Assembly (NCBI GenBank): GCA_964636595.1
Contig: CAZWSG010000009.1
Coordinates: forward strand, 65-64,064
Source: an uncultured Nitrosopumilaceae archaeon
Lineage (GTDB): Archaea > Thermoproteota > Nitrososphaeria > Nitrososphaerales > Nitrosopumilaceae
Length of the DNA: 64,000 nt
Reading direction: 5' to 3'
Position numbers and translations under genes: made by a program. The notes below the pieces were generated by a model. It was not told the origin of the DNA. It saw only the letters and a program-made list of their open reading frames with translations, and did no database searches. Shown here in pieces: positions 41,293-61,770 of the stretch (position 1 is the stretch's first letter; each line of letters begins with the position of its first letter).

Positions 41293-41365
41293 GCTTGACG
41301 TAATAATCTAGAGAATATAATAGTTAACCAGATTTCTAAGTTGAAAGCAAAAATCCTCTTATGTT

Positions 41366-43636: not shown

Positions 43637-43751
43637 GATTCTAATTATTGAGTCTACTGGATTTGTGACAATGTTAATTTCTAAATTAGAATTTTTGCTT
43701 TACCGAAACGTGATGGTATAATTTTTTGATACTGTGTAATGCAAAACACGT

Positions 43752-43837
43752 ACAAATTTTTCAATCAACAGATAGGAATTCTTAATAAATTAACTCATCT
43801 AATCAAAAATATAATGCGTTTTAAAAATTGGAAACAA
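43752..43837 (+). promoter_or_regulatory. promoter/5' cassette copy B
   Basis: Matches 38376-38460, including GGAATTCTTAATAAATTAACT (21/21) and ATGCGTTTTAAAAA(C/T)TGGAAACAA. Confidence 0.55.
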
Positions 43838-44218: not shown

Positions 44219-45372
44219 CAAAAAAATATTCCAGGAGAAAAATTGCTGTAGTTACAGGAACAAGGGCTGAATATGGAATTTTAACATCGCTTTTACATGA
44301 AATAAAACAGAGTAAAAAACTTGAACTTTATCTGATTGTGGCAGGAACACATTTAGAAAAAAAATTCGGTTATTCCATTGAAGGAATAATCAAAGACGGA
44401 TTCAAAATATCTAATACTGTACAAATGACTTCTGGAAATACTGGTTATGACATGTCTATGGCAACATCACAAGGAATTACACAATTTTCAAAAGTTTACG
44501 AAAAAATCAAGCCTGACTTTAATATCATACTTGGAGATCGAGATGAACCATTTGCAGCAGCTATTGCAGCTATGCACATGAACATGATCAATATACACAT
44601 TCACGGAGGCGAGAGCTCAAAAGGTGGAATAGACGAATACATAAGACATGCAATAACTAAGATCTCAAATATTCACTTTGCAGCAACCAAACAAAGTGCA
44701 CAGCGAATAATAAAAATGGGTGAAAACAAAAAATATGTTTTTGTGACAGGCTCACCTTCAATTGATGGTATAATGAATACTGAATATCTTACAAAGGATC
44801 AAGTTCTTGAAAAATTTGGATTAAAGGATAACTATGTACTTGCAGTGCAACATCCAGTTACTACTCAAACAAAAGATGCAGGCAACCAAATGAAAAAAAC
44901 TCTTGATGCTCTAGTAAAATGGGGACAAGATGCAGTAATCATAGGGCCAAACTCTGATGCAGGACATCGTGAAATATTTCAATTGATAAAACAATATATT
45001 CAAACTTACAAATTTTTAAAATTCCACGTAAACCTATCACGAAAGGATTATCTCTCTTTACTAAAATATTGTGATTTTATAATCGGGAATTCAAGTAGTG
45101 GAATAATTGATGCGCCATCATTTAAGAAACCCACAATTAACATAGGCATACGCCAGATTGGAAGAGAGTCTGCATCCAACATAATAAACACACAACACAA
45201 TGTAAATTCAATCATATTAGCCATAAGACATGCTCATTCTATTCCATTCCAAAAAACTTTACAAAAATGTACAAACCCCTATGGGGATGGAAAGGCTTCT
45301 AAGAGAATTGTCAAAATACTTGAAACTATACAAATCACTGATGATATGATTCAAAAGAAAATATCGTATTAG
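44215..45372 (+). CDS. neuC: UDP-N-acetylglucosamine 2-epimerase (hydrolysing), NeuC/LegG-like
   Basis: KIAVVTGTRAEYGILTSLL, LGDRDEPFAAAIAA, IHIHGGE, GNSSSGIIDAPSF. Confidence 0.85.
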   Translation: MTKKYSRRKIAVVTGTRAEYGILTSLLHEIKQSKKLELYLIVAGTHLEKKFGYSIEGIIKDGFKISNTVQMTSGNTGYDMSMATSQGITQFSKVYEKIKPDFNIILGDRDEPFAAAIAAMHMNMINIHIHGGESSKGGIDEYIRHAITKISNIHFAATKQSAQRIIKMGENKKYVFVTGSPSIDGIMNTEYLTKDQVLEKFGLKDNYVLAVQHPVTTQTKDAGNQMKKTLDALVKWGQDAVIIGPNSDAGHREIFQLIKQYIQTYKFLKFHVNLSRKDYLSLLKYCDFIIGNSSSGIIDAPSFKKPTINIGIRQIGRESASNIINTQHNVNSIILAIRHAHSIPFQKTLQKCTNPYGDGKASKRIVKILETIQITDDMIQKKISY

Positions 45373-45391
45373 CGTATGGAAATCTTTTTAC

Positions 45392-46723
45392 TTGTATCGA
45401 TTATATCGAGAACACATTAGTTTGAAGATTACTAAATCACTCAAATATCTAAAACATGCAGAAAAGAGGATACCTGCTCTAACTCAGACATTTAGCAAGG
45501 CAGCATTTACCTTTGTCAAGGGGGTTTATCCTGTTTACGTAGACCATGCTTATGGAAGTCATATGGTTGACGTTGATGGCAATGACTACATTGACTATCT
45601 CTGTGGTCTTGGTCCGATAATTCTAGGATATGGTTACAAGTCCGTAAATGACGCCATAAAGGAGCAGCTAAAAAATGGCATACTATTTTCATTGCCACAT
45701 AAACTAGAGCTTGACCTTGCAGATACAATATGCAATACTATTCCATGTGCAGAGATGGTAAAATATTCAAAGACTGGTTCTGATGCAGTAACACTTGCAA
45801 TAAGGGCTGCAAGGGCAATCACAAAAAGAGACAAAATTGCGTACTGTGGAACCATGGGAGTACAACATGATTGGCAGACTACGCTGACTACAAGAGATTA
45901 TGGAATCCCGAAATGGAACAGAAAACAGATCGAGGTCTTTGAATATAACAAAATTGAAACACTTGAAGAAATTTTTGAAAGAGATGGAAAAAATATTGCA
46001 GCAGTATGTATGGAACCCACAATGTTTGAACTACCAAAGGAAAACTTTCTCAAGAAAGCAAAAGAGATTGCTCATAAAAATGGAGCCGTATTGATCTTTG
46101 ATGAAATTGTGACAGGATATCGTTTTGCAGTTGGAGGAGGGCAGGAAAAATTTGGTGTTATACCTGACATTACCACATTGGGCAAGGGACTTGCTAATGG
46201 TATGCCACTTGGAGCAGTAGTTGGAAAAACTGAATTTATGAAGATATTTGACGACGTGTTCTTTTCATCAACAAACCAAGGTGAGACATTGTCTTTGGCA
46301 GCTGGCAAGGCAACTATAGATGAAATTAAAACCAAAAATGTTCCAAAATATCTCTGGAATATTGGAACAAAACTGATGGACGGTTATAATAAAATAGCAA
46401 AAGAAAATGAAACAGGAATTAGCTTTACTGGCTATCCAATTAGGATGAAGCCTATTTGTATAGATTCTGATGGAAAAGAGTCACTTGAAATCAAGAGCTT
46501 GTTACTACAAGAAATGGTAACACGTGGAGTATTCCTTCATCCTGGAGTTGACTATATTGGATTCTCTCATACCTCTGATGATGTCAAAAAAACACTTGAT
46601 GCCTTTGAAGAGTCAGTCGAGGTTATCAAAAAAGCTGTCAAAACTAATACTGTGAAAAAACAACTTCGTGGAGACATAATAAAACCAGTATTTCCTCCAA
46701 AGAAAAAAGGTGGCAAGAAATGA
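45392..46723 (+). CDS. class III PLP aminotransferase (glutamate-1-semialdehyde aminomutase-like)
   Basis: GSHMVDVDGNDYIDYLCGLGPIILGY, LIFDEIVTGYRF, TTLGKGLANGMPLGAV (PLP lysine). Confidence 0.75.
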   Translation: MYRLYREHISLKITKSLKYLKHAEKRIPALTQTFSKAAFTFVKGVYPVYVDHAYGSHMVDVDGNDYIDYLCGLGPIILGYGYKSVNDAIKEQLKNGILFSLPHKLELDLADTICNTIPCAEMVKYSKTGSDAVTLAIRAARAITKRDKIAYCGTMGVQHDWQTTLTTRDYGIPKWNRKQIEVFEYNKIETLEEIFERDGKNIAAVCMEPTMFELPKENFLKKAKEIAHKNGAVLIFDEIVTGYRFAVGGGQEKFGVIPDITTLGKGLANGMPLGAVVGKTEFMKIFDDVFFSSTNQGETLSLAAGKATIDEIKTKNVPKYLWNIGTKLMDGYNKIAKENETGISFTGYPIRMKPICIDSDGKESLEIKSLLLQEMVTRGVFLHPGVDYIGFSHTSDDVKKTLDAFEESVEVIKKAVKTNTVKKQLRGDIIKPVFPPKKKGGKK

Positions 46724-47733
46724 AGTTTTTAGTTGTGGGATTGGGAAGTATGGGCAAGCGAAGGATCCGCAACTTGATGTATCTTAATCATACTGACATA
46801 ATTGGATGTGATACATCCCAAGAAAGAAGATCAGAAGTAGAATCCAAATATTCTATCAAGACTTTTTCAAATCTGGATGAAGCCTTTGCACAAAAACCGG
46901 ATGCTGTGATTATATCAACTCCTCCTGAAAAACATTATGATATTGCAGTAAAGACTGCAGAACAAGGATTTCCATTCTTTATGGAGGCAAATGTAATTCC
47001 AGATGGTTTTGAAAAAGTTGTATTAACATGTTCCAAGAAAGATGTATTCTATGCACCATCATGTACCATGCGATTTAATCCTAGTCTAAGAAAAGTAAAT
47101 GAACTTGTTAAAAATAACAGCATAGGCAAAGTCTTGGCATTTGTGTATCATGTTGGACAATACCTTCCTGACTGGCATCCATATGAAGATTATAGAACAT
47201 TTTATGTTAGTAAAAAAGAAACGGGTGCTTGCAGAGAGATAGTTCCATTTGAACTAAACTGGTTATCTTGGACATTTGGAGATATAACAAATCTTGCTGC
47301 AATGAAAAGAAAAGTATCAAAATTAGAATCTGATATAGATGATATCTATGCCACAATTTTAGAATTTGACTCTGGCATTGTGGGAAATTTAGTAGTTGAT
47401 GTGTTAAGCAGAGTACCATATCGTACTTTGAAGATAATTGGTGAGGAGGGTGTAATAACATGGGAGTGGATAGAAAAGAAGGTCCGTGTATATCATACAT
47501 CTACAAAATCATGGGATGAACATGTAGAGCCTCCTGGAATTAAGATAGAAGGATACGTTGCAGAAGAAAACCAGTACATAGATGAAATGTCCTCGTTTGT
47601 ATCAGGACTACATGATCCATCAAATTATTCACATAATCCACAAAGTGAGCAGAGAATACTTGATATTTTAAAGAAGATAGAAGAGAGCTCTGAACAGGGG
47701 ATGCACACAACAGTAAAACAAAAAATCAAATGA
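46720..47733 (+). CDS. Gfo/Idh/MocA-family NAD(P)-dependent oxidoreductase
   Basis: MKFLVVGLGSMGKRRIRNL Rossmann N-terminus; about 337 aa. Translationally coupled to its neighbours. Confidence 0.65.
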   Translation: MKFLVVGLGSMGKRRIRNLMYLNHTDIIGCDTSQERRSEVESKYSIKTFSNLDEAFAQKPDAVIISTPPEKHYDIAVKTAEQGFPFFMEANVIPDGFEKVVLTCSKKDVFYAPSCTMRFNPSLRKVNELVKNNSIGKVLAFVYHVGQYLPDWHPYEDYRTFYVSKKETGACREIVPFELNWLSWTFGDITNLAAMKRKVSKLESDIDDIYATILEFDSGIVGNLVVDVLSRVPYRTLKIIGEEGVITWEWIEKKVRVYHTSTKSWDEHVEPPGIKIEGYVAEENQYIDEMSSFVSGLHDPSNYSHNPQSEQRILDILKKIEESSEQGMHTTVKQKIK

Positions 47734-48893
47734 GAATTCTCTACTTTACACAGCTATTCTATCCTGTACTCTTTGGTGGTGGCGAGTACATCTTTTACCA
47801 GTGGGCAAAAGATCTCTCAAAAAAAGGCCACCAAGTTTTTGTCATAACACAGCGATTGGAAAATACCTCACCTCACGAAACAGTAAACGGAATTGAGATA
47901 TTTCGAGTAGGATCTCCAGTAAAACTATCTGGAACATTACCTATAGGGATTACATCAAACCTATCATTTTTGATATCATCGTTTTTCAAAGGAATTGATA
48001 TCGTAAAAAAGAACAAAATAGATCTAATCCACTCAAATACATACATTCCAGTATTTGCAGCCCACTTGTGTTCTAAACTGACAAACAGGCCGCACATTGT
48101 TACAATGCACGATGTTTACTATTCCGCCAAGGACAATTTTTGGAAGTCTTGGTCAAAACAAGAAAAAATATCTCCAGTTTCCGGAATCCTAGGCCCAATA
48201 ATCGAAAAACTGATAGCAAAACTGTCTGTCACATTTCATACTGTAAGTGAACAAAGCAAACAAGATATGCAGTCTTCTCTTGGAATAAAAAAGAAAATCA
48301 TGGTGATTCCAAACGGTATTGATCTAGACGAATATGACATACAAAATAAAAACACTGAAAATCAAGTCATATTTATCGGTAGACTGGTATTTTACAAGAA
48401 TGTAGAGATGCTACTTGGGGCATTTGCAAAGGTTATACAAAAAATTCCAAACTCTAAATTAATTATAATTGGAGATGGACCTCTAAAAATATTTCTTGAG
48501 AAAAAGGCAGAATCATTGAAAATCAAAAACAACATAAAATTTACAGGAAATATACCTGATTCAGAAAAAATTGACCTGTTATCTAAATCAAGATTTTTAT
48601 TAAATCCAAGCCTTGTGGAAGGATTTGGCATTGTGGTACTTGAGGCATTTGCCTGCAGAAAACCAGTTCTCGTATCTGACACAAAACCCCTCTCAGATCT
48701 TGTGGCAAATTCTGTAGATGGATTCATTGTATCCTCTCATGATGTAGATGCCTGGGCTGAAAAAATAATCCAGTTACTGTCTAATCCCAAACTGTGTGAT
48801 ACCATGGGAGAAAAGGGAAGAATCAAGGCATCCGACTATTCAATTTCCAAATTGTCTGGTAAAATGTTGGAATTGTACCAGTCCGTGATTTGA
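47730..48893 (+). CDS. glycosyltransferase family 4
   Basis: SLVEGFGIVVLEAFACRKPVLVSD (EX7E motif). Confidence 0.75.
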   Translation: MRILYFTQLFYPVLFGGGEYIFYQWAKDLSKKGHQVFVITQRLENTSPHETVNGIEIFRVGSPVKLSGTLPIGITSNLSFLISSFFKGIDIVKKNKIDLIHSNTYIPVFAAHLCSKLTNRPHIVTMHDVYYSAKDNFWKSWSKQEKISPVSGILGPIIEKLIAKLSVTFHTVSEQSKQDMQSSLGIKKKIMVIPNGIDLDEYDIQNKNTENQVIFIGRLVFYKNVEMLLGAFAKVIQKIPNSKLIIIGDGPLKIFLEKKAESLKIKNNIKFTGNIPDSEKIDLLSKSRFLLNPSLVEGFGIVVLEAFACRKPVLVSDTKPLSDLVANSVDGFIVSSHDVDAWAEKIIQLLSNPKLCDTMGEKGRIKASDYSISKLSGKMLELYQSVI

Positions 48894-48905
48894 CGGGATT
48901 CGATT

Positions 48906-50087
48906 TTATTCTGTATCTTGCCTAGCCTTTATCGCATTGGAATACATTTCTATGATCTTCTGACTCATCAATTGCTCGCTGTATAGGCTATCGAGGGTCT
49001 TGTTGCCATTTTTCCCCATTATTGATGATTCTTGTAGATTACTTGACATCCTCAACAAATACTCTGCCCAAATTGCATCATCATGAGAATCCAAGACATA
49101 ACCAGTGGTACCGTGTGATACTATGCTAGACATGGGTCTAACGTTTGAAACCAAAACTGGCCTAGATTGAGAAAATGCCTCCAAAATTACAAGCCCAAAT
49201 CCTTCGCACAAGCTAGGAAATACAAGTGCATTGGAAGATGCGATCATCTCCATCTTTTCATTTGAGGTCACATATCCTATAAATTCTACATTTGATTCCA
49301 GTCCTAGACTTTTCACAAGTTTCTCCAAGGTTTTTCTGTAAGGCCCGTCACCAACTATGGATAGTTTTATCCTGGGTTCTTTCTTTTTTGCAATGCTAAT
49401 TGCCTTGATTATAACTTCAAGATTTTTATAAAATACCAGTCTACCTACATGCACAAACCTCAAAGGATCTATCTCAATCTGTTTCTCTTGTGATCTATTT
49501 TCTATTGCATTGTAAATTATATGGATTGGATCTCTTGCACCAAATTGTATCAAATCATCCCTTGTTGCCTCGCTTACGGTATGAATGCAGTCATGCCTGA
49601 TCTTTACCATTAATTTTTCAAAAAATGGAGCCAAGGCTACATTTATTCTTGATACGTTGCTTTGTATGCCCCATTGTTTCCAATAGTTTCTTCCACAAAG
49701 CGAAAACACATCATGTATTGCTATGATGTGCGGTGCTGAGGTAAGACTTGACAATATGGATCCAGCAAGAGATGGCGCAAAATTATTCGAGTGAACAACA
49801 TCTATCTTTTCTTTTTTTATTACTTTCAAACCTGCTCTAATGGCATTAATGGCATATCTTGCATTGTCTACAAATCCTGGCGGAAGTCCTCCCTTGTATT
49901 GCAGAGTGGGTGCAACAAAAATTAATTGTACATTTTTGTGAACCTTGTAATCTTCATCTATTATTTTATTTGTTATAACAAATACATTGTGTCCTTTTTC
50001 TGCAAGATTTTTTGCAATCAAGCTAAAGATATGTTCTCCACCTCCTCTAGTGGTTGAAAAAAACTGGGTCAAAAGAAGTATGTTCAT
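48906..50087 (-). CDS. glycosyltransferase family 4
   Basis: SLCEGFGLVILEAFSQSRPVLVSN (EX7E motif). Confidence 0.75.
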   Translation of the reverse strand: MNILLLTQFFSTTRGGGEHIFSLIAKNLAEKGHNVFVITNKIIDEDYKVHKNVQLIFVAPTLQYKGGLPPGFVDNARYAINAIRAGLKVIKKEKIDVVHSNNFAPSLAGSILSSLTSAPHIIAIHDVFSLCGRNYWKQWGIQSNVSRINVALAPFFEKLMVKIRHDCIHTVSEATRDDLIQFGARDPIHIIYNAIENRSQEKQIEIDPLRFVHVGRLVFYKNLEVIIKAISIAKKKEPRIKLSIVGDGPYRKTLEKLVKSLGLESNVEFIGYVTSNEKMEMIASSNALVFPSLCEGFGLVILEAFSQSRPVLVSNVRPMSSIVSHGTTGYVLDSHDDAIWAEYLLRMSSNLQESSIMGKNGNKTLDSLYSEQLMSQKIIEMYSNAIKARQDTE

Positions 50088-50192
50088 TTTGATCTCATTT
50101 TACTTTTGTATGTCATATAACTATGCTTTTGGGTAAATGTTACCAAATCTCAAAGATGAAACTAGAAAGATCTGAAGAGTAATTAACTACGC

Positions 50193-50729: not shown

Positions 50730-50761
50730 AACTCTATTCCTTGTCTAGTAATAAAATTAGA

Positions 50762-50810
50762 GATTCTGGTACCTTCACGGGTCATAATTCTCCGTGTTAC
50801 CAGTCGGGAC
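50762..50810. repeat. left terminal inverted repeat
   Basis: GATTCTGGTACCTTCACGGGTCATAATTCTCCGTGTTACCAGTCGGGAC. Confidence 0.9.
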
Positions 50811-50845
50811 AGACGGTTTTCGTCTTTTCCAAGTCTGAAAGAACT

Positions 50846-51196
50846 TTAATCCTTTTTCCTTGTGAATTTTCCTTTGATAAATCCTGCATTTACTTCAAAC
50901 GAGTCCAATTCGAATGGAAATCTGCCTTGCGGTTTCTTGATTTTGAATTTGAACAGATCAATATCACCTTGAAATCCATTGGCTGTGGTGAAACTAATTG
51001 TGCCATTTTTCTTACCACCTTTTTTGTCAAGAATCAGATGAACTGTTCCATTATCTACTACTAATCGTACAGATATCTCACTTCCATGTTCTAGAAATTC
51101 ATCATAGTCAGTCAATTCAGATTTGGCTTTTTTGATTGCCATGAAAGAAAAATGGCTTTCATCTATTAAAACTTCAAAAGCCCCGTAATTGAACAT
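50846..51196 (-). CDS. transposon passenger ORF, 116 aa, no family recognised
   Basis: Clean ORF with a beta-rich, Lys-rich sequence. Confidence 0.4.
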   Translation of the reverse strand: MFNYGAFEVLIDESHFSFMAIKKAKSELTDYDEFLEHGSEISVRLVVDNGTVHLILDKKGGKKNGTISFTTANGFQGDIDLFKFKIKKPQGRFPFELDSFEVNAGFIKGKFTRKKD

Positions 51197-51586
51197 CTAT
51201 CCAAAACACTCCTAAAGTTAACAAGACCTTGTTTTGACACAGATTGACGCAGTTATCCTTCCCATATGATGATAGTCTAATGCTATGAGACACGAGTTGT
51301 TGAGTATGACAAAAACGTGATCTAATATTGATTCTATGAATTTCATATTAGAAATAGTATGTCTTCCTAATTGTTAAATAATAGATATTGTAACCTCACA
51401 TCGTTGTTTGGGATTGTGCCGTACGTCAGGCATTTTAGAACAATGTTAGCTAGTCCTTTTATGCAAATTTCGCCTATTATAAGTATGAACTGTGATGAAC
51501 TACCTCATTCTATGACTTTGGAATTTAGGAATCTAGGATATGTTTATAGGACGAATTTTAATCATGGAGCGTACGGTGTATAAAAA

Positions 51587-51811
51587 ATGATGCGTTTAGG
51601 ACTCACACAAGATGAAGTAATTGCAAAAGAAGTATGTGCCAAGATAACTCGTGTAATGGGTGTAGAACAATTTGGCAATGAGATTGCCATACGAAGTGCA
51701 AAGGAAATTGTTGAAAAAATCAGAACACAAATAGGAAACGAACATCTGGTACAAGCAATAGAAACAGAACTAAAGAATTGTCACACAAACGTTCAATGGC
51801 AATTTGCGTAG
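51587..51811 (+). CDS. transposon passenger ORF, 74 aa, predicted helical, no family recognised
   Basis: ORF MMRLGLTQDEVIAKEV... Confidence 0.35.
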   Translation: MMRLGLTQDEVIAKEVCAKITRVMGVEQFGNEIAIRSAKEIVEKIRTQIGNEHLVQAIETELKNCHTNVQWQFA

Positions 51812-51847
51812 AAATATTTTTTATAATCTTTAATTTTTAATGTTATT

Positions 51848-52351
51848 TTACTGTGAAGATTGATGTTCAATTTTAACTTGTATAGTGTTTGATTCTATCG
51901 TTGTATCAGTAATGTGTCCTACTGCAGATGCTGTAGCTTTGAAACCATGTTGAAAAACAGCGATGAGTCCAAAACAAACTACTATTGCAGTAACACAAAG
52001 CATTGTTAGAACCATTATGGATGCATATGTGTATTGAGAAAGGTCATTGACAAATGCAGACCAAATGACATAGAGATGCAACAAAATTTCACATAATATT
52101 GCTGCGTAGATTATCATACTACATAAAAGTTGATGATTTATTGTAGCACTTGGTTTAAAATTAATTGCAAGAATAGACCCAAAACCTGCAAACCCTATGA
52201 TAGTTGCAGAACTGATCATCACTTCACCGCTTGGTATTTCATTTGAATTGGTATTGTTTGAGGTTGTGTCTGCATAACTCTGTGAAAAGGAGAAACAGAC
52301 AAGCACTAATGTTGAAAATATTATAATTGAATTAATCTTATACAAACTCAT
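51848..52351 (-). CDS. transposon passenger membrane protein (signal/anchor plus about 4 TM helices)
   Basis: MSLYKINSIIIFSTLVLVCFSFSQSYA followed by four hydrophobic segments. Confidence 0.45.
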   Translation of the reverse strand: MSLYKINSIIIFSTLVLVCFSFSQSYADTTSNNTNSNEIPSGEVMISSATIIGFAGFGSILAINFKPSATINHQLLCSMIIYAAILCEILLHLYVIWSAFVNDLSQYTYASIMVLTMLCVTAIVVCFGLIAVFQHGFKATASAVGHITDTTIESNTIQVKIEHQSSQ

Positions 52352-52427
52352 TCACATCTCCAAAATGGAGAAGTTAAACCTTGTGAGTATTTTTGCCAAA
52401 CATACTTGTATTTTGTACCGTAATTGA

Positions 52428-53537
52428 TCATAAACTCGCCCGCTGAATCAAAGTTTTCCACTTGTCTTGTCCCTGAATCTCTATACCACAAGCTTGTGCA
52501 GGTGTCTTACTGTCCAAGCTCATGTGTGGTCTAATGTAGTTATGGTATAGTTGATAGCCATTAATCATGACTGAATCAGGCTTTTTCAAACCCCTGACTA
52601 CTTTCTCTCTGTCTCGAAATTCACCGTTTAGACGTTCCATCTTGTTATTGTTCATGTCGCCTTTGAAGTGAATATGTCGTATGTGTTTTGACTGGGGTTT
52701 TTCCCTAGTGTAAAATTCTTTTGTGAATGCTTCTGCAAAGTTTCTAGCTCCATCGGTAATCAGGATTTCAGGTCTTTTACCAGCTACTTGCTTCGCCTTG
52801 ACGAATAACGGTCTTACATCCTCTGTATACTTGCTATCTGATACCTGTTTTGCTATCCAATAACGAGTTTCGTCATCCATTAGGGCATAAAGATATTTTG
52901 TATTCCCTCTTACTTTGATGAAGATCTCATCAGCTCTCCATGTACTTGACACTTGTGGAGTTATCTGTTCAAGATACTTTTCCATCAATCCAATGTATTT
53001 TTTGATCCACTTGTAGACTGTTTTGTGTGAAATCTCAACGCCTTGTAATCTTAGAAACTTTTGGACATTCCTTAGAGATTCACCAGTAAAGTACAACTGC
53101 ATCGCTGAAGTAATAGTTTGAGGGCTTGATCTCATTCCTTCAAAACCTAGATTGATTGTAAACCGTTTGTTGCAATCTTTACAGGAAAATCTCTGCAAGT
53201 TGCCATACTTGTTGTGTCTTAATCCGTGTTTTACAATTCTGTCAGAATGACATTTTGGACAGATTGAAGTGTTAAGCTGTTCAATTACAACCTGTTTTCG
53301 TTCAACTGTATTTCTTATGGTTAAGCTGATTTCTAGACAGTGTGTATGTTTGCAACAGACTTTGCGATAAATGCTATCAGGACAGGTACAAACCCAGCCT
53401 GATTTTGTGCTAAAGAGGTCATACCAAGTATCAGAACTTTGGGACTTGACCTGATAGTGAAGCTCATCTACTCGCCTGACCTGATCTGGTTTGTCAGCGA
53501 TTTCTTTTCCTTTTGTTTGTCTATTATTTTGTTTCAT
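52428..53537 (-). CDS. IS6-family-like DDE transposase with N-terminal SWIM zinc finger and zinc ribbon
   Basis: CTCPDSIYRKVCCKHTHC (CxC...CxH) and CPKCHS...CKDCNKRF. DDE core: WRADEIFIKVRGNTKYLYALMDD, ILITDGARNF, NNKMERLNGEFRDRE, YNYIRPHMSL. These resemble IS26/IS6 signatures. Confidence 0.75.
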   Translation of the reverse strand: MKQNNRQTKGKEIADKPDQVRRVDELHYQVKSQSSDTWYDLFSTKSGWVCTCPDSIYRKVCCKHTHCLEISLTIRNTVERKQVVIEQLNTSICPKCHSDRIVKHGLRHNKYGNLQRFSCKDCNKRFTINLGFEGMRSSPQTITSAMQLYFTGESLRNVQKFLRLQGVEISHKTVYKWIKKYIGLMEKYLEQITPQVSSTWRADEIFIKVRGNTKYLYALMDDETRYWIAKQVSDSKYTEDVRPLFVKAKQVAGKRPEILITDGARNFAEAFTKEFYTREKPQSKHIRHIHFKGDMNNNKMERLNGEFRDREKVVRGLKKPDSVMINGYQLYHNYIRPHMSLDSKTPAQACGIEIQGQDKWKTLIQRASL

Positions 53538-53538
53538 T

Positions 53539-53588
53539 TTCGGTACCTAATATTAGGTACCTAATAATATAAACTTTTAGGTACCGAA
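53539..53588. promoter_or_regulatory. operator-like array of three GGTACC-centred 12-mers in the divergent tnp/abrB promoter region
   Basis: TTCGGTACCTAA (53539-53550), palindromic TTAGGTACCTAA (53553-53564) and TTAGGTACCGAA (53577-53588). The 20-bp stretch GGTACCTAATATTAGGTACC (53542-53561) is a perfect palindrome. Confidence 0.6.
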
Positions 53589-53619
53589 GATTTATCTAAG
53601 TGTCTGACATAGGAATAAT

Positions 53620-53790
53620 GTGAAATTACAAAAACAATCATCAAGAAAATATAATGAAAAAGAATATGAAAAATGGGTTGTTGTCATACCGACTGAAAAG
53701 ATCAAAGAATCAGGTTGGAAAGCAGGTGAAGAATTAGAAGTGGACTTTAAAGGAGATAAACTACTAATAAAACGTAAAAGCTCCAATTAA
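53620..53790 (+). CDS. AbrB/SpoVT-family DNA-binding protein (56 aa)
   Basis: Own translation from GTG 53620: MKLQKQSSRKYNEKEYEKWVVVIPTEKIKESGWKAGEELEVDFKGDKLLIKRKSSN. This fits the AbrB looped-hinge pattern (vvIP.e.i...g.k.Gd.lev...gdkiiik). Below the track length cut-off. Confidence 0.55.
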   Translation: MKLQKQSSRKYNEKEYEKWVVVIPTEKIKESGWKAGEELEVDFKGDKLLIKRKSSN

Positions 53791-54528
53791 TTATTTAGTT
53801 TGCTTTTGTTTTGATATAAATCCATTTAGAAAAGATGTAAGTTTTTCATATGATTCTATTGCTTCAATTCTTATCTTCTCACTATCTTCCTCACTTGCCA
53901 TGTGAATATCGCCATCAAAAGGAATGTACCAAATCTGTGCAACAGAATCTACAGATTTGTCCATTCCCTGCATAAAAATTGTATATATGATGGTTTTTGC
54001 AAGTACGGCTGTTTCTCTCATAGTTTTACCACTGTGCCATGCAGTTTTTAGAAATAATGAACCATATGGTTCACCATGACCAATAGCAAGGAATGTTGTT
54101 ATTTCCTCAGAAATTCCAGTACTTGTGACATGATAAAGTTCAGCAGTATTCTGTGAGTTCTTTATTGCCATTAGAATCTCAAGTGAATCACCATGTACCC
54201 TGTCCTTGTATCTTTCATTTAGATGCAAACTCAAATCTTCTACAACATTGATCAGTTCATCCAATGATTTGATCTGTTTACTCTCAACATGTTCTGCTAC
54301 CTGTTTTAAGAATTTCAAAAATACTCCTGTAATTCCAGCTGCACCGATTACTGCATTTGGCATAGCTTGGAATATTTTATCACCTTTCTCCTCATTATTA
54401 TCTCGCAAGATTTGACTATCACTAACAAGTATTATTCCATCTTTACAAGTCGCACCCAAAATATAGGTCAAATCTCGTTTCTTATTATTTCGGTACCTAA
54501 TAAAATGATCCTTGTTTACACTAATCAT
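53791..54528 (-). CDS. stand-alone proteasome beta-subunit/HslV-like Ntn threonine hydrolase
   Basis: TYILGATCKDGIILVSDSQILRDNNEEKGDKIFQA...IGAAGITG aligns to archaeal beta TTTVGIxCKDGVVLAADxR...KKIxKI...AGxxGD (Thr1, Asp17 and a Lys33 equivalent present). AIGHGEPYG sits where GSGS is normally found. An alternative TTG start at 54471 lies directly before the Thr codon. Confidence 0.65.
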   Translation of the reverse strand: MISVNKDHFIRYRNNKKRDLTYILGATCKDGIILVSDSQILRDNNEEKGDKIFQAMPNAVIGAAGITGVFLKFLKQVAEHVESKQIKSLDELINVVEDLSLHLNERYKDRVHGDSLEILMAIKNSQNTAELYHVTSTGISEEITTFLAIGHGEPYGSLFLKTAWHSGKTMRETAVLAKTIIYTIFMQGMDKSVDSVAQIWYIPFDGDIHMASEEDSEKIRIEAIESYEKLTSFLNGFISKQKQTK

Positions 54529-54538
54529 TGAAAATCAT

Positions 54539-54587
54539 GTCCCGACTGGTAACACGGAGAATTATGACCCGTGAAGGTACCAGAATC
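54539..54587. repeat. right terminal inverted repeat
   Basis: Exact reverse complement of 50762-50810. Confidence 0.9.
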
Positions 54588-54630
54588 AAATTAGAATATC
54601 GATAAATATCATAACAATCTCTGATACCTG

Positions 54631-56682
54631 TTGAATAACCAAAAAACGGTATGTATTATTTTTGTTGTAATAGTATGTTCTATCTTTTCTCAGGCAGCAT
54701 ATGCTGCAAATACCTTGATTGCAACAATTCCAGCTGTTGGTTTACATCCTCGGGGTATGGCATACGACTCTGCCAAGGGAGAAATTTTTGTGGCAAATAT
54801 TGGAGACAACACCGTATCCATAATAGATGACACCACAAATACCGTAATTACAACAATTCCAGTAGGTTTACGTGCTTTTGGAGTAGCATACGACTCTGTC
54901 AAGGGAGAAATTTTTGTGACAAACCAAGGTGACAACACCGTATCCATAATAGATGACACCACAAATACTGTAATTGCAACAATTCTAGTCGGCACATCTC
55001 CGGAAGGAGTAGCATACGACTCTGCCAAGGGAGAAATTTTTGTGACAAATTTTGTTAGTAATTCTGTATCAGTAATAGATGACACCACAAATACTATAAT
55101 TGCAACAATTCCAGTCGGCACATCTCCAGGCGGCGCAGCATACGACTCTGCCAAGGGAGAGATTTTTGTGACAAACGAAGCTGACAACACTGTATCAGTA
55201 ATAGATGATGCCACAAATACCGTAATTGCAACAATTCCAGTCGGCGCAGCTCCAGAAGGAGTAGCATACGACTCTGCCAAGGGAGAGATTTTTGTGACAA
55301 ACGAAGCTGACAACACAGTATCCATAATAGATGACGCCACCAATACCATAATTGCAACAATTCCAGTCGGCACATCTCCAGGCGGCGCAGCATACGACTC
55401 TACCAAGGGAGAGATTTTTGTAACAAATGCAAGTTCTGGTACCGTATCCATAATAGATGATTCCACCAATACTGTAGTTGCAACAGTTACAGTCAGTACA
55501 GGTCCAGTCGGGGTAACATACGACTCTGCCAAGGGAGAGATTTTTGTGGCAAATCTGGTGTCTGACAATGTATCAGTAATAGATGATGGCTCATCATCCT
55601 CATCTCCAGGCGGACATGATGTAACAATTTACAACCCACCAAGTCTTGGAAACGATTACCACTTCAAGTATGGTGGAGGGGTATCAATCAACGGAAAACC
55701 ATTTGACATCAAAACATATCACAGCATAATTCCACAGCAGGTGCTTTCAATATACAAGCAAGCAGTATTTAATTTCACAATATATGACGAAAGAGGCGGA
55801 AACACCGTATCCCATGTTGGACTGTACCTTCACTTCAAGGGAGGCGTGGCAGCATCAAACGCAGACACGTGGATATCTTGGGACAAGCACAGTGGAGTTC
55901 AAGTACACGATCCAAACAAAATATTCTCTAGTGCAAATGTCACCACAACAACAGACACAAACTATCGCTATGCTACATTTACCGTAACACCACAAAAGAC
56001 AATGCCTGATTCTTCACTTGTAATGAGAATGTGGGATGACAAGCTTGCATCAGGTGACATTCCAATATGGGGAGCTATCATAATCGTTGATCCAAACGCA
56101 CCAGTACCGGTACAAAAGATACCAGACAACCAGTATGATGACTATGTCACACTAGAAAACATTCTAGATAAAGACGGATATGACATCCCATCACTTTTAC
56201 ACAAACAGTATGCAATGCAGGAAACCTATTCTTCAGTTGACATCAACTGGGTGTATGACAAGGGTACTGATAAGCTGACAATGATTGAAAGCGACAAGTC
56301 AGGAAATGTAATTGGTGATGTGGTGTATGATTTATTCAAAAAATCAGACCTGCCAACAGTCTCAGACCATGATTATGCGTACATTCCACAACAATTGAAC
56401 CGAGATGATATTACCAGTGAACAGGCAGCAATGCAAACTGAGGCAGTAAAGGCACAAAATTATCTTACGCAAACTGATTATCTGGGTTCCAGCATTCCAA
56501 ATTTCACACCATCAGGTGATGCAGTTCCAATACTTGATGGTTATACAAACTCCAAGACAACACAGCTGTACCATGATTCGTCTAATGAGAACACTGCAAT
56601 GAAATCCGAGGCAGACAAGGCAGAGAATCTAGTTGCAAGTCTTGGACTGGTACGACAAAACAATTTTGAGAATTTAAAATAA
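54631..56682 (+). CDS. secreted protein with a seven-bladed YVTN-type beta-propeller and a C-terminal domain of about 360 aa
   Basis: Signal-like VCIIFVVIVCSIFSQAAYA, then seven 42-aa repeats: ATIPVGxxPxGxAYDSAKGEIFVTNxxxNTVSxIDDxTNTV. Confidence 0.75.
   Translation: MNNQKTVCIIFVVIVCSIFSQAAYAANTLIATIPAVGLHPRGMAYDSAKGEIFVANIGDNTVSIIDDTTNTVITTIPVGLRAFGVAYDSVKGEIFVTNQGDNTVSIIDDTTNTVIATILVGTSPEGVAYDSAKGEIFVTNFVSNSVSVIDDTTNTIIATIPVGTSPGGAAYDSAKGEIFVTNEADNTVSVIDDATNTVIATIPVGAAPEGVAYDSAKGEIFVTNEADNTVSIIDDATNTIIATIPVGTSPGGAAYDSTKGEIFVTNASSGTVSIIDDSTNTVVATVTVSTGPVGVTYDSAKGEIFVANLVSDNVSVIDDGSSSSSPGGHDVTIYNPPSLGNDYHFKYGGGVSINGKPFDIKTYHSIIPQQVLSIYKQAVFNFTIYDERGGNTVSHVGLYLHFKGGVAASNADTWISWDKHSGVQVHDPNKIFSSANVTTTTDTNYRYATFTVTPQKTMPDSSLVMRMWDDKLASGDIPIWGAIIIVDPNAPVPVQKIPDNQYDDYVTLENILDKDGYDIPSLLHKQYAMQETYSSVDINWVYDKGTDKLTMIESDKSGNVIGDVVYDLFKKSDLPTVSDHDYAYIPQQLNRDDITSEQAAMQTEAVKAQNYLTQTDYLGSSIPNFTPSGDAVPILDGYTNSKTTQLYHDSSNENTAMKSEADKAENLVASLGLVRQNNFENLK
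54715..55590. repeat. seven 126-bp coding tandem repeats (YVTN blades), several with high nucleotide identity
   Basis: GATGACACCACAAAT recurs at 54826 and 54952 (spacing 126). The blades beginning near 55081 and 55333 are nearly identical. Confidence 0.85.
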
Positions 56683-56788: not shown

Positions 56789-58264
56789 GTGCCAGTGCAA
56801 AAAGTAGGGGTTTATGTTATCACAAACAGGGAACACCCAAAATTCCCTGAATGTCAAAATGCCATAAAACGCGAGATGGGCAATTTTCCATTCTTCATTA
56901 TACGTGATGGCACCACAAGGGCAGAAGGTCGTCAGATATGTATCAATGATGCACGCAAAAGGGGATTTGATTGGATATGTTTTGTCGATGATGATTTTGT
57001 GCTAAATGAGGGCTGGTGGGATGACGTATCGCAATACATGGACGATCCAAATGTTGGCATGATTTGGGGAATGAATTGGGACCATGATGATTCAAGGAAA
57101 AACTGGATAAACTATCTGCACTCTGTAACTATTCCAAACCTTGACATACGCGCACTAGTCAAGCGCAAACTTGACAAAAAGTATGATGTATGGTACCAAA
57201 AAACACATCCACCTAGAAAGGTCTCAAGATTTGATTATCCAGAATACCTAAAACATGAATTTGAACAGCGAGGGGCCACACATGATACATTGATCCGACT
57301 GGATGCTATACCCAAGTGGGTATCTATACCAAAGGCACTTCATGTATACGAAGACAAGTTTCTAAAACAAATAGCAGAGATCTCAGGCTTCAAGTGCATA
57401 GTAACCCAGACTGGTGGCATCCATTATGACATGACAAGATGGGATGGAAAATCAATAATGGACCAGTTTGATTATAACAAGATGTTTTATCATATGTCCG
57501 CAAGACGCAAAACAAGGGTATCATCACTGCTTCTTTCACCACTGGCGTTTTATTTTAGATACCGGTCCACTGGAAGTATCAGTACAGCACTTTATTTCTG
57601 GTGGTACCATTATGTCCTCTATAACCTTGCGTGCATCTTCTTGCAACCTCCAGTCTACAATTTAGATCCAGAGCCAATCAACATGATGCTCATGATGTTT
57701 GAGGGAAAAACATGCTATGACATTGGTGCCAATATGGGTTACACTTCTCTTATTCTGAGCAAAAATTTTGAGAATATCTATTCCTTTGAGCCTTCTTTGG
57801 CATACAAAAAATTAAAAAAAAATGTCTCTGGAAACAAGAAAATTCACACTTTTAACATTGCAATCAGCGACCATGATGGAAAACTAGTCATGGTAAAAAG
57901 GGAAATTCCTTGGAGGTCAGGTCAATTGGTTGCAGATGGAGGAACAATAGATGATGGGTGGGGTAAACTAATTGAAAAGGTTACCATGGATTGTAAAAAA
58001 ATAGACAGTATGGACATGCCAAAACCTGATTTTATAAAAATTGATGTTGAGGGGTTTGAGCTTGACGTGATACGTGGTACACTGGAAACCATTCAAAAAC
58101 ACAAGCCCAGTATTTTCATCGAGATACATTCGTATGCTCTAGGATCCGAGATCAAAAATATTTTGAGTCCTCTTTATCAAATTCATCACGTGAGTCATCC
58201 ACATTATGCAGAAGATGCCAAAATTAAAAAAGAGCATTATTTTCTTTTCTGCATTCCAAAATAA
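56789..58264 (+). CDS. fusion protein: GT-A/GT2-like N-terminal domain, hydrophobic linker, FkbM-family methyltransferase C-terminal domain
   Basis: N-terminus: GFDWICFVDDDFVL (DxD). Middle: LLLSPLAFYF ... YHYVLYNLACIFL. C-terminus: CYDIGANMGYTSLILS ... FIKIDVEGFELDVIRG (FkbM motifs). Confidence 0.6.
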   Translation: MPVQKVGVYVITNREHPKFPECQNAIKREMGNFPFFIIRDGTTRAEGRQICINDARKRGFDWICFVDDDFVLNEGWWDDVSQYMDDPNVGMIWGMNWDHDDSRKNWINYLHSVTIPNLDIRALVKRKLDKKYDVWYQKTHPPRKVSRFDYPEYLKHEFEQRGATHDTLIRLDAIPKWVSIPKALHVYEDKFLKQIAEISGFKCIVTQTGGIHYDMTRWDGKSIMDQFDYNKMFYHMSARRKTRVSSLLLSPLAFYFRYRSTGSISTALYFWWYHYVLYNLACIFLQPPVYNLDPEPINMMLMMFEGKTCYDIGANMGYTSLILSKNFENIYSFEPSLAYKKLKKNVSGNKKIHTFNIAISDHDGKLVMVKREIPWRSGQLVADGGTIDDGWGKLIEKVTMDCKKIDSMDMPKPDFIKIDVEGFELDVIRGTLETIQKHKPSIFIEIHSYALGSEIKNILSPLYQIHHVSHPHYAEDAKIKKEHYFLFCIPK

Positions 58265-58443
58265 TCCTAAACAGACTTGTGAAATGAATATCTTGGCATA
58301 GTGGCCCATCAAGAAATACCTAAAGGAATACAAAAGATCCAAGTTTCATCTCTTGAAGATTGATAATTTCTCGTGTCTTTATTCTGCTAAAACTTAATAC
58401 CGTCTCAGTAATACTTAAACAGTAATACCGCGTAATATTACAT

Positions 58444-58668
58444 ATGAGTACAGTAGTTTCAGCAAAGATACCAAAGAAACTAAAGGAAAAGGCAACTCGT
58501 TATGGCATAGAAATAAGCCGTACTGTAAGGGATGCACTTGAAGAAAAAATAAAGGTGATCGAGGAAAAAGAACTGGCCAAGAACATGGATGAACTACGAT
58601 CAACACTTGCACATTTGAAAAAAAATGACATTGTAAAGGCTGTAAGGGCATCAAGAAATGAAAGATAG
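58444..58668 (+). CDS. vapB: VapB-like antitoxin (RHH/CopG-like)
   Basis: VSAKIPKKLKEKATRYGIEISRTVRDALEEKI. Overlaps the downstream PIN gene by 11 nt. Confidence 0.6.
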   Translation: MSTVVSAKIPKKLKEKATRYGIEISRTVRDALEEKIKVIEEKELAKNMDELRSTLAHLKKNDIVKAVRASRNER

Positions 58669-59068
58669 ACTCTATGATACAAGTGCCTTGTTTAATATCA
58701 TGATAAAAGATGGCTCTGGTGCGTCAAAGATTCTAAGATCACAGAACATTTTAGATCTGACTGCATATGAGCTGGGAAATGCCATCTGGAAGCTTGCATA
58801 TTTGCAAAAAAAGATCACACACCAGCAAGCATGCAAGATATTGGAATCATTTCTACTTTTACGCCAGACTATGCGCGTATTAGAAATTACTGGAATGGAA
58901 GAGGAAATAAAAAATCTTTCAATTGATACAGGCCTGACTTTTTATGATTCGGCATATGTTGTAGCTGCCAAACAAACAGGACTTGTACTTGTAACAGATG
59001 ATGCTTCTCTTGCCAAGATTGCTGCAAAACATCTTACTGTTGTGGATTCAGACAAGTCCTTGAAATAG
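58658..59068 (+). CDS. vapC: PIN-domain toxin VapC
   Basis: LYDTSALFNI ... YELGNAIWK ... FYDSAYVVAAKQTGLVLVTDD carries the acidic PIN residues. Confidence 0.75.
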   Translation: MKDRLYDTSALFNIMIKDGSGASKILRSQNILDLTAYELGNAIWKLAYLQKKITHQQACKILESFLLLRQTMRVLEITGMEEEIKNLSIDTGLTFYDSAYVVAAKQTGLVLVTDDASLAKIAAKHLTVVDSDKSLK

Positions 59069-59135
59069 GCTTTAGGGTAAATAAATTGAAATTGCCAAAA
59101 CATCTAATTCGAACATACCTCTGAGACCTAGCAAA

Positions 59136-60467: not shown

Positions 60468-60749
60468 TTGATTATGAAACTAGTGTCAAGTGCAAAGTTC
60501 AGATATGTCAAAGTCTCAACAAAGGGACGGATAACAATTCCAAAGGAGATCCGAGATTCGCTTGATCTACAGGAAGGTGATAGAGTAATTTTTGCAAGTG
60601 AGAACGGACAGGCAACAATGAGAAAGGCTTCAAAACTCTCTGAGATTTTGCGCAGACAGAAACCATGGCAAGAGAACAGTGTCAAGTTGCAAAAGAAAAT
60701 GCGTAAAGAATGGTGTAACGGAAATACGTATACAGACGTACTTTACTAG
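60468..60749 (+). CDS. AbrB/SpoVT/MazE-family antitoxin-like protein, no adjacent toxin
   Basis: VKVSTKGRITIPKEIRDSLDLQEGDRVIFASENGQATMRKA. Confidence 0.6.
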   Translation: MIMKLVSSAKFRYVKVSTKGRITIPKEIRDSLDLQEGDRVIFASENGQATMRKASKLSEILRRQKPWQENSVKLQKKMRKEWCNGNTYTDVLY

Positions 60750-60753
60750 ACCA

Positions 60754-61100: not shown

Positions 61101-61241
61101 TCAAAAAGATTCCAAAACCAGTTCTATTGCTTCAGTCATGTTGGTTTTTAATTCCTCTATCGTTTCGCCCTCGCTTATTGCACCGGGTATCTCCATGCAC
61201 TGGCCTGTGTATCCTCCTTCTGGAGCCTCTTGAATCCTCAT
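61101..61241 (-). CDS. small HicB-like (UPF0150) protein, 46 aa
   Basis: Own translation: MRIQEAPEGGYTGQCMEIPGAISEGETIEELKTNMTEAIELVLESF, matching the GGY...PG..s.GeT.eEa..n..EAiel.le pattern. Below the track cut-off. Confidence 0.5.
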   Translation of the reverse strand: MRIQEAPEGGYTGQCMEIPGAISEGETIEELKTNMTEAIELVLESF

Positions 61242-61377
61242 AGTAAATTTTCGTCCTTTCAGGGTGTGATAAAATCACTCTTGTCTGATATGTAGTTGAG
61301 CCATCATTTGGATAATTATGTCCCAAGCAAGACACACTAGATACATCTAATGATCTAATAGGTTACTTGTGGCAAAA

Positions 61378-61770
61378 CTAGGAATCAATTATTTTTATTC
61401 CCTTGATCTTACTGAAATCTCCATCAAAGGTGGCAATTTTTTCAATATAATTTTCTTGCATGGTTGATATCGTTGTACAATCTGTAAAACTAAGGATAGT
61501 ATCCTTTTGCTTGCAAAAAATATTCCATGCTTTATCAAAACTTGATTTTTCAATGTCAATTATTTTAAGTGATTTTAATACCTCGCCTATCTTTGATGCC
61601 TTTTCAATACTTTTGAGGCGAATCAAGCTTACTGTTACAACTTCTCCAAAAATATAGTCTGTAATACAAAGCGACTCGTGCATTTGTTTCATCAATTTCA
61701 CTGCTTTGGAATGGTTTTGGTCTCTTGCATTAAAATAAGAAATAATAAAACTTGTATCTAGAATTATCAT
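61378..61770 (-). CDS. vapC: PIN-domain toxin VapC
   Basis: MIILDTSFIISYF ... IFGEVVTV ... SFTDCTTISTMQENYIEKIATFDGDF. Confidence 0.75.
   Translation of the reverse strand: MIILDTSFIISYFNARDQNHSKAVKLMKQMHESLCITDYIFGEVVTVSLIRLKSIEKASKIGEVLKSLKIIDIEKSSFDKAWNIFCKQKDTILSFTDCTTISTMQENYIEKIATFDGDFSKIKGIKIIDS

Follow-up and report, generated by a model that had tools for sequence, protein, structure and literature searches.

The stretch described here (the window) comprises 64,000 nucleotides (nt) of contig CAZWSG010000009.1 from an uncultured Nitrosopumilaceae archaeon and carries, at 50762..54587, a 3,826-bp transposon with six open reading frames (ORFs). The transposon encloses a gene for a proteasome-family threonine hydrolase, referred to below as the hydrolase, together with genes for a small AbrB-like protein and an IS6-like DDE transposase. 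On the minus strand, the element begins with one inverted repeat, followed by the hydrolase, the convergent AbrB-like gene, the IS6-like transposase, three ORFs without a family assignment, and the second inverted repeat. The placement of the hydrolase next to an inverted repeat, an AbrB-like gene, and a transposase is found again in independent elements. The transposon and its flanks are composed of the following features (aa, amino acids).

50754..50761, no strand: left copy of the 8-bp target-site duplication, AAATTAGA, identical to 54588-54595
50762..50811, plus strand: hydrolase-distal terminal inverted repeat, 50 nt, GATTCTGGTACCTTCACGGG..., 100% complementary to 54538-54587
50846..51196, minus strand: 116-aa ORF, variable passenger, no Pfam, PADLOC, or PHROGs match; tblastn finds copies of the same element only
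51587..51811, plus strand: 74-aa ORF, variable passenger, no family match; copies of the same element only
51848..52351, minus strand: 167-aa ORF, variable passenger, by eye rich in long hydrophobic stretches and probably a membrane protein; no family match
52428..53537, minus strand: IS6-like DDE transposase, 369 aa, with an N-terminal zinc-ribbon/SWIM-like region (Pfam and NCBIfam)
53538..53619, no strand: 82-nt spacer between the divergent transposase and AbrB-like genes, with three TTAGGTACC palindromic sites and TATA-like runs; probable operators and promoters
53620..53790, plus strand: 56-aa AbrB/SpoVT/MazE-fold DNA-binding protein, probable repressor (Pfam, TIGRFAM, and model)
53791..54471, minus strand: favored coding sequence of the hydrolase, with TTG start 54471-54469, Thr1 codon ACC 54468-54466, 226 codons, and stop 53793-53791
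54472..54528, minus strand: in-frame upstream extension of the long hydrolase ORF, probably promoter/operator DNA rather than a propeptide
54538..54587, minus strand: hydrolase-proximal terminal inverted repeat, a perfect match to the distal repeat
54588..54595, no strand: right copy of the target-site duplication, AAATTAGA, read in the sequence

The initial annotation had placed the hydrolase on a transposon, and the perfect 50-nt inverted repeats and the 8-bp duplication supply the boundaries of that element. The inverted-repeat sequence has two matches in 64 kb, compared with 0 expected from 100 shuffles, and its tips, G(G/A)TTCTG..., are presumably IS6-like when set against the ends of IS26 and IS257. 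The transposase matches the Pfam family DDE_Tnp_IS240 (PF13610) at 2.4e-17 and the NCBIfam family transpos_IS6 at 1.1e-35 (123.2 bits, marginally below the cutoff of 125), plus an IS1/IS1595 zinc domain. Each of the 13 contigs that carry the neighboring APS-kinase gene either has the transposon inserted in the same place or is interrupted at the inverted repeat. No empty insertion site was found among these 13 contigs; the case for mobility rests on the inverted repeats and target duplications. Contig L067 ends (at 7550) a few bases past the APS-kinase gene, approximately where the inverted repeat would start, the kind of break that a repeat or element present in several copies in that sample should cause. 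PADLOC and PHROGs give no meaningful match for the three passenger ORFs, and by tblastn the 167-aa ORF is absent from the other elements found. Rfam, run on the whole window, returns one tRNA (12728-12800) and nothing inside the element.

The hydrolase gene product is a proteasome-family N-terminal-nucleophile threonine hydrolase. The ORF at 53791..54528 on the minus strand (245 aa) matches PF00227 (Proteasome) over residues 23-185 (E 2.9e-14, 53.6 bits, cutoff 22.4), and it contains the TYILGATCKDGIILVSD...DKIF stretch. The likeness to the N terminus of proteasome β subunits proposed in the initial annotation agrees with this match and with the profile alignment. A word-indexed search returns 18 relatives, and a precomputed PF00227 match is present in 16 of 18 homologues. 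Searched exhaustively with the family profile, 1.84 billion cluster representatives yield 167 clusters at E ≤1e-30, 523 at ≤1e-10, and 1,306 at ≤1e-3. The hydrolase scores 28.4 bits against the archaeal PsmB equivalog TIGR03634, for which the cutoff is 224, and a single-sequence search of the PDB gives weak matches only. The family profile is approximately equidistant from β subunits (5e-11) and α subunits (7e-11), with a much weaker match to HslV (2.7e-4).

An AlphaFold2 (AF2) model of the hydrolase, built on 18 homologues, has a predicted local distance difference test (pLDDT) value of 85.9 and a predicted template modeling (pTM) score of 0.83. The model adopts the α-β-β-α sandwich fold of the proteasome-like family, with a core spanning residues ~21-203 and a disordered N terminus (residues 1-15, pLDDT <50). 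Structure prediction had been proposed as the check on the fold; Foldseek, run with this model against the PDB, returns proteasome-fold chains exclusively (20S α, 20S β, and Anbu), with a probability of 1.0 and identities of 14-19%. The target-normalized template modeling (TM) score is 0.79 for the T. acidophilum β subunit, and TM is 0.70-0.73 for Anbu over 235 columns. The extra C-terminal tail, estimated beforehand at about 45 aa, comprises 43 aa beyond Pro203 and is modeled as one long helix (213-244); a C-terminal extension of ~35-70 aa is nearly universal across the family representatives. As the initial annotation had it, no α subunit or AAA gene adjoins the hydrolase in the window. PADLOC and PHROGs scans give no meaningful match for the hydrolase.

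In a profile-to-PDB alignment, Thr21, Asp37 (position 17 counted from the Thr), and Lys51 of the hydrolase lie on Thr1, Asp17, and Lys33 of the β subunits, the three catalytic equivalents that had been assigned previously. Among 150 family representatives, each of at least 200 aa, Thr1 is kept in 134 of 137 and Asp17 in 147 of 148, and both Lys33 and Gly65, the equivalent of the oxyanion Gly47, are kept in 150 of 150. Asp190 (125 of 150) and Ser/Thr192 (106 of 150), which both fall outside the profile-to-PDB alignment, are plausible equivalents of Asp166 and Ser169. The GHGEPY sequence of the hydrolase aligns with GSGSTY of the β subunits, with His151 in place of Ser129. The GHG that the initial annotation had pointed out in place of the usual GSG is present, but it is not family-wide: the Ser129-equivalent position is Ser in 56, His in 48, Thr in 14, and Asn in 7 of the 150 representatives, so that, judged from these sequences, GHG is a trait of the subclade and not a hallmark of the family. 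Within the subclade of the hydrolase, GHGEPYG is invariant.

That invariance, like the change of Ser129 to His, would also suit a protein that is not a protease, either one with a different chemistry, such as a connectase-like transpeptidase or ligase, or a non-catalytic scaffold. The proteasome-like family does include a ligase, connectase (PMC7980362, PMC8665760). Connectase (DUF2121) occurs in methanogens only, lacks H1 and H2, and carries a helical insertion at S3/S4 (PMC8665760). In the AF2 model, on the other hand, helices 67-82 and 89-111 occupy the place of H1/H2 by our assignment, no S3/S4 insertion is seen, and there is no DUF2121/connectase Pfam match. In addition, Thr1, Asp17, Lys33, and the Gly are almost invariant, and the broader family mostly retains GSG. 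A function other than that of a protease is very improbable.

Related loci were gathered by one scan each of genome and metagenome contigs, along with exact look-ups, and comprise 54 hydrolase clusters at 90% identity. Apart from four more distant members, each added by a single look-up, all were recovered with the peptide pattern IGHGEPYG, and the statistics accordingly apply to the GHG subclade. Many of the contigs are short, and taxon labels of metagenome-assembled genomes (MAGs) are given as in the records. In 31 of 41 informative nonredundant loci (76%), a DDE transposase lies within 4 kb of the hydrolase, mostly at a distance of ≤500 nt. The near flank (204 kb) accounts for these 31 loci with a transposase, whereas the far flank of the same contigs (136 kb) has a single transposase hit. 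A convergent AbrB-like ORF is found within 800 nt downstream of the hydrolase in 25 of the 42 loci with enough sequence. Inverted repeats with an 8-9-bp duplication surround the hydrolase and transposase in L013, L020, L040, L058, and L060, and the position of the hydrolase beside one inverted repeat recurs in independent elements. Hydrolase-bearing elements occur in MAGs labeled Bathyarchaeia, Micrarchaeota, Pacearchaeota, and Woesearchaeota and in unbinned metagenome contigs. A second type of transposase, DDE_Tnp_1, is present in L008, L054, L059, L011, L050, L060, and L062. The gene orders observed are the following.

Order A: inverted repeat, hydrolase, convergent AbrB-like gene, IS6-like transposase with zinc ribbon (the window and ~16 loci)
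Order B: hydrolase, convergent short IS6-like transposase, no AbrB-like gene (L032-34, L037, L040, L064)
Order C: hydrolase, convergent AbrB-like gene, DDE_Tnp_1 (IS4/IS5-like) transposase (L008, L054, L060, L062; L059 without the AbrB-like gene)
Order D: transposase, then hydrolase (L069, L025)

The term "cargo," applied to the hydrolase in the initial annotation, is correct in that the gene lies inside a transposon, but it understates an association that recurs with two transposase families and in the same repeat-proximal place. Among the distant GSG-type members, most lie on contigs too short for a verdict on context; in P0040, a convergent ORF gives a match to the AbrB profile, and in P0075, an IS6-like transposase is encoded immediately 5' of the hydrolase. 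A simple scan gave no convincing inverted repeats in L014, L042, and L045. L016 contains a 57-nt inverted-repeat pair (139-198 and 4294-4350) and a third, 24-nt copy at 4845-4868, ~500 nt farther on. A clean target duplication is not seen in this locus, and the third copy may mark a nested, tandem, or solo end.

Individual loci show further variation. In L013 (MAG labeled Bathyarchaeia), the hydrolase gene at 9956-10721 is split over two frames and is probably a frameshifted, decaying copy. The L060 transposase (1547-2731) is seemingly a chimera: the IS6-like profile matches its N-terminal ~100 aa, and the remainder is a DDE_Tnp_1 catalytic domain. The two transposase families may have a DNA-binding domain in common. 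In L033-L038, L040, and L041, which have no AbrB-like gene, the inverted-repeat-like sequence GGTAGTG(G/T)(G/A)TCA(A/G)TTTGA lies 60-75 nt 5' of the hydrolase start. This sequence is present even in L038 and L041, where no transposase was detected; such loci may be decayed or non-autonomous elements that keep the hydrolase. In L023, a 386-aa AAA (PF00004) ATPase gene at 9093-10253 on the minus strand, rather than a transposase, adjoins the hydrolase/AbrB cassette and is the sole candidate ATPase partner among the loci sampled. In L011, an RloB and AAA_21/AbiEii-like pair (11015-12838, minus strand) adjoins the cassette, with a DDE_Tnp_1 transposase just beyond.

The position of the start codon decides whether the hydrolase carries a propeptide. 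The long ORF from ATG 54528 is open and was chosen by several gene callers, and its product would have a 20-aa extension that is autocleaved as in the 20S β subunits. The sequence KDHFIRYRNN is seemingly conserved at the protein level in P0003, P0004, P0007, and P0010. This conservation is, however, at the level of DNA: a 25-nt block upstream of the hydrolase, AAGGATCATTTTATTAGGTACCGAA, which contains a GGTACC palindrome, is invariant in five elements whose proteins are 34-53% identical, and downstream of it the coding sequence varies at third positions. The TTG at 54471-54469 that the initial annotation had placed directly before the Thr codon is read in the sequence, and the corresponding codon is ATG, TTG, or GTG in every one of ~46 distinct loci, with TTG at 7 of 7 distinct Leu positions and GTG at 2 of 2 Val positions. 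At the protein level, the −1 residue of the 150 representatives is Met in 109, Leu in 21, and Val in 6. In-frame stops are found 2-12 codons 5' of the hydrolase start in several loci, that is, in the region corresponding to the extension. In addition, the low pLDDT of residues 1-15 speaks against a propeptide, and the inverted repeat lies just 10 nt from ATG 54528, too close to accommodate a promoter within the element. Propeptides are reported only for β subunits and HslV (Fuchs et al. 2021, PMC8665760), in agreement with a hydrolase that has none.

Because the −1 codon is always a start codon and the apparent propeptide is conserved as DNA, the coding sequence is taken as 53791..54471, and translation from TTG 54471 without a propeptide, as the initial annotation had suggested, is strongly favored. 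The start-codon pattern and the DNA-level block effectively exclude the long ORF with an autocleaved propeptide. Removal of the initiator Met, predicted from the known specificity of methionine aminopeptidase, would then expose Thr1. Upstream of the start, a TTAGGTACC copy at 54492-54500 overlaps the TATA-like TTTTATTA at 54498-54505, ~24-30 nt 5' of the hydrolase TTG. TTTTATTA may serve as the TATA box of a leaderless hydrolase mRNA.

The 56-aa protein encoded convergently to the hydrolase matches Pfam MazE_antitoxin at 4.1e-5 (23.9 bits, cutoff 24.7) and TIGR01439 AbrB at 7.6e-4, in both cases slightly below the cutoff. A low-confidence model from the single sequence (pLDDT 66) has a strand-strand-helix-strand-strand topology, and its best Foldseek matches are all MazE, AbrB, SpoVT, VapB, or the archaeal plasmid proteins C56/C68, with probabilities ≤0.97 and E >0.1. 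In PHROGs, the one match is phrog_661 (unknown function) at 3.5e-6. The AbrB-like protein is the most conserved of the three proteins (mean column identity 68%).

The motif TTAGGTACC occurs five times in 64 kb, compared with 0.27 expected, and all copies lie within the element, with three palindromic sites in the 82-nt spacer (53542-53564 and 53577-53585) and one upstream of the hydrolase. Sites of the form TTAGGTACCTAA are located within 53538-53592 and 54488-54502 and are putative targets of the AbrB-like protein. The layout of the spacer, with two to three motif sites among TATA-like runs, recurs in more than 20 other loci and in almost all of those with an AbrB-like gene, where the hydrolase start usually has one motif site 24-45 nt 5'. 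The motif is present wherever the AbrB-like gene is and is missing 5' of the hydrolase in nearly all loci without it. This pattern is consistent with an AbrB-like protein that would bind TTAGGTACC(T/G)AA palindromes and repress three promoters. At L072 2690-4240 (also in L073), a transposase 90% identical to that of the window occurs with no proteasome homologue. In L072, a different 57-aa AbrB-like ORF is paired with four CCACGTGG-type palindromes in the spacer, and regulator and operator thus co-vary. The L072 contig resembles a virus or plasmid, with a Dam methylase gene and numerous small ORFs on the same strand.

The L072/L073 transposase, which works without a hydrolase, would fit an ordinary passenger, that is, a host-beneficial stand-alone protease (e.g., for stress proteolysis) that is repeatedly captured and has no role in the element. 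So would the remaining genes of the element in the window, which are variable passengers, and the members found in ordinary chromosomal context without a transposase (Methanolobus L010, L047, and L051). This explanation is quite unlikely, as the place beside one inverted repeat is fixed in independent elements and the operator motif is common to the hydrolase and transposase promoters. In addition, with 76% transposase adjacency, loci that are only 30-50% identical, and two transposase families, very many captures in the same place would be required.

Pairwise divergence of the hydrolase correlates with that of the AbrB-like protein (Spearman rho 0.67) but does not follow the divergence of the transposase (0.14), as judged from 11 elements and 55 pairs; the pairs are non-independent, so p-values are indicative only. 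The hydrolase and the AbrB-like gene therefore constitute a cassette that has combined with different transposase backbones. The dN/dS values (ratio of nonsynonymous to synonymous substitution rates) for the hydrolase are 0.07 and 0.085, and the gene is under purifying selection.

A co-evolving pair that persists while transposases are swapped, and that is joined to two transposase families, is also compatible with an addiction or defense cassette, the main rival explanation. Here, the hydrolase would be a toxic or abortive-infection effector and the AbrB-fold protein its antitoxin or repressor, and the cassette would hitchhike on transposons and stabilize them. The AbrB/MazE/VapB fold of the small partner is typical of antitoxins, the L011 cassette has defense-island-like surroundings (RloB and the AAA_21/AbiEii-like ATPase), and PIN/AbrB pairs are found nearby in the window. 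Toxin-antitoxin pairs sit within Tn3-family transposition modules, which resemble the present arrangement in having a two-gene cassette, an AbrB-type protein beside the transposase, and a common regulatory region. In contrast to those modules, the two genes are convergent, with abutting stop codons, and are not co-transcribed as type II toxin-antitoxin genes are; the 56-aa protein is filled by its DNA-binding domain, with no space for a toxin-binding tail; and the large partner has a proteasome fold. To our knowledge, no described toxin family contains a proteasome-fold hydrolase. There is no PADLOC match, and the type B elements (L032-34, L037, and L040) have no AbrB-like gene, such that an unneutralized toxin would be hard to explain. 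On balance, an addiction or defense function is unlikely.

The preferred reading, with a probability of about 60%, is that the hydrolase and AbrB-like genes form an AbrB-repressed, propeptide-less Thr protease cassette that is part of the regulated module of the transposon. The AbrB-like repressor would bind palindromes that overlap the promoters of the hydrolase, its own gene, and the transposase. In an established copy, the hydrolase, the AbrB-like gene, and the transposase would all be repressed together; when little repressor is present, as might be the case shortly after arrival in a new cell or replicon, all three would be expressed together. Methionine aminopeptidase would strip the initiator Met to leave Thr1 free, and the hydrolase would be an active Thr protease that self-associates via its C-terminal helix, as Anbu does. 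It would work for the element, most likely through proteolytic turnover of one of the element's own products (repressor or transposase) or of a host protein that keeps the element in check. The structural and genetic part of this reading is highly probable. A direct role of the hydrolase in the control of transposition is tentative. It is likewise possible, if doubtful, that the proteasome-homologue subfamily as a whole represents dedicated accessory proteins of DDE transposons. Such proteases, co-repressed with the transposase by the AbrB-type protein, would determine when transposition happens or how it ends by cleaving the repressor, the transposase, or a host factor.

Several observations weigh against the proposal of a regulated transposon module. 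The elements of L072 and L073 indicate that the hydrolase is not needed by this transposase clade, and an obligatory role for it there is rejected. For several members, namely, Methanolobus L010, L047, L051, and L052, no transposase or AbrB-like gene was detected; in L010, the hydrolase lies between nif genes and glnB/amt. The reliance of nearly all loci on the IGHGEPYG pattern ties the context statistics to the GHG subclade, and the replacement of Ser129 by His could change the chemistry.

The hydrolase fits none of PsmB, HslV, Anbu, and connectase. Similar to 20S β subunits and HslV, it has the proteasome fold and the catalytic Thr, Asp, and Lys at the same spacing; the differences are the His in place of Ser129, the extra C-terminal helix, the lack of a propeptide, of an α subunit, and of HslU, and the location on a transposon. 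The weak HslV profile match and the absence of an adjacent AAA+ gene in the window do not support identity with HslV. Anbu has the joint-highest query-normalized TM score, 0.70, among the top 50 Foldseek hits (equal to that of a mycobacterial 20S chain) and is also propeptide-less, but it is bacterial, and its chains are not among the best 60 of 91 profile hits at E ≤0.01. Anbu is encoded in an operon with ATP-grasp and transglutaminase-like genes, and neither of these partners is found beside the hydrolase.

Dozens of families of prokaryotic proteasome homologues were catalogued in 2021 without a functional clue or an informative gene neighborhood (PMC8665760). Two of these, ACC (archaeal, C-terminal coiled coil) and WPH (widespread proteasome homologue), are similar to the hydrolase in fold, in Thr1/Asp17/Lys33/Gly47, and in having no propeptide (PMC8665760). 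Likened by description only, they also share the equidistance from α and β subunits, the long C-terminal helix, the lack of an AAA+ partner, and a mostly archaeal origin, as judged for the hydrolase from the sampled loci. The representative sequences of the two clusters are WP_161937350.1 and WP_040339656.1, and the hydrolase family may belong to ACC, to WPH, or to a further cluster. The two differ in that no informative context is given for ACC and WPH, and the string "transpos" is absent from the paper (PMC8665760), whereas the context of the hydrolase is strong and specific.

The initial annotation had taken all known stand-alone homologues to be chromosomal. This claim is contradicted by the phage-borne PPH and AAH (PMC8665760) and by 28 phage proteins that match the hydrolase fold. 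PPH and AAH are thus also proteasome-like proteins on mobile elements; however, they belong to the bacterial group I (HslV/BPH-like), are ~140-190 aa long, occur in Caudovirales phages, and have a TM score of only ~0.5 against the hydrolase model, whereas the hydrolase is archaeal, equidistant from α and β subunits, and located on DDE transposons. Neither proteasome nor AbrB genes are mentioned in surveys of mobile elements in thaumarchaea or of insertion sequences in archaea, and no earlier report of an association between proteasome homologues and DDE transposons was found in the literature searched. A proteasome homologue on a mobile element is therefore not new, but its conserved, operator-linked placement in DDE transposons appears to be.

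Members of the IS6 family typically generate an 8-bp duplication, have 14-nt inverted repeats, and are transposase-only insertion sequences (IS) of ~0.7-1.7 kb; ISDsp3 is the single IS6 tIS with a passenger gene (PMC7986276). The element in the window has in common with this family the DDE_Tnp_IS240 transposase and the 8-bp target duplication. It differs in its 50-nt rather than 14-nt repeats, its size and content (3.8 kb with six ORFs, as opposed to ~0.8 kb with one), its putative repressor/operator system, and its conserved proteasome-like gene. With 3,826 bp and six ORFs, it is by its sequence a tIS/transposon variant of the IS6 type.

Proteins of the window fall into clusters at ≥90% identity with Ca. 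Nitrosotalea devanaterra and Nitrosotalea sp., which points to a Nitrosotalea-like ammonia oxidizer as the host. A surface-glycan island (~37000-50100 and 56789-58264) encodes multiple glycosyltransferases (GT4 and GT2), epimerases, an aminotransferase, a NeuB-like synthase, APS kinase, and an FkbM methyltransferase fusion. The transposon is inserted between the APS kinase gene and the gene for a secreted YNCE/YVTN β-propeller protein at 54631-56682 on the plus strand. The propeller gene contains a tandem array (54760-55554) of 6.3 copies of a 126-nt (42-aa) unit, and its product is 683, 641, 599, or 557 aa long across metagenome contigs. These length steps are exactly 42 aa, and the propeller repeat number thus varies in the population. 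Farther along are PIN-domain genes at 58658-59068 (a weak PIN match) and 61378-61770, each with a small unannotated ORF directly upstream; from their arrangement, these may be toxin-antitoxin-like pairs (~58400-59070 and ~61140-61770). A separate 91-aa MazE/AbrB-type ORF is located at ~60470-60750; the coordinates of the PIN genes and of this ORF are converted from the L001 gene calls. Neither the PIN genes nor the 91-aa ORF is related to the AbrB-like gene of the transposon.

The repeated neighborhood of the hydrolase is tight, consisting of IS6-like and IS4/IS5-like transposons, a fixed repeat-proximal place, and a co-evolving AbrB-type partner, and it provides the first genomic-context clue to function for this orphan enzyme family. 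An orphan enzyme is thereby turned into a testable system of three proteins, one operator, and defined DNA ends. For archaeal insertion sequences, the hydrolase represents a new kind of conserved accessory gene, and the IS6 family is extended beyond one-gene elements. If the protease does act on the transposase or the repressor, this would be a new mode of transposition control. It would also be, as far as we know, the first proteasome-family enzyme with a part in transposon biology and would give a functional foothold for the orphan homologues.

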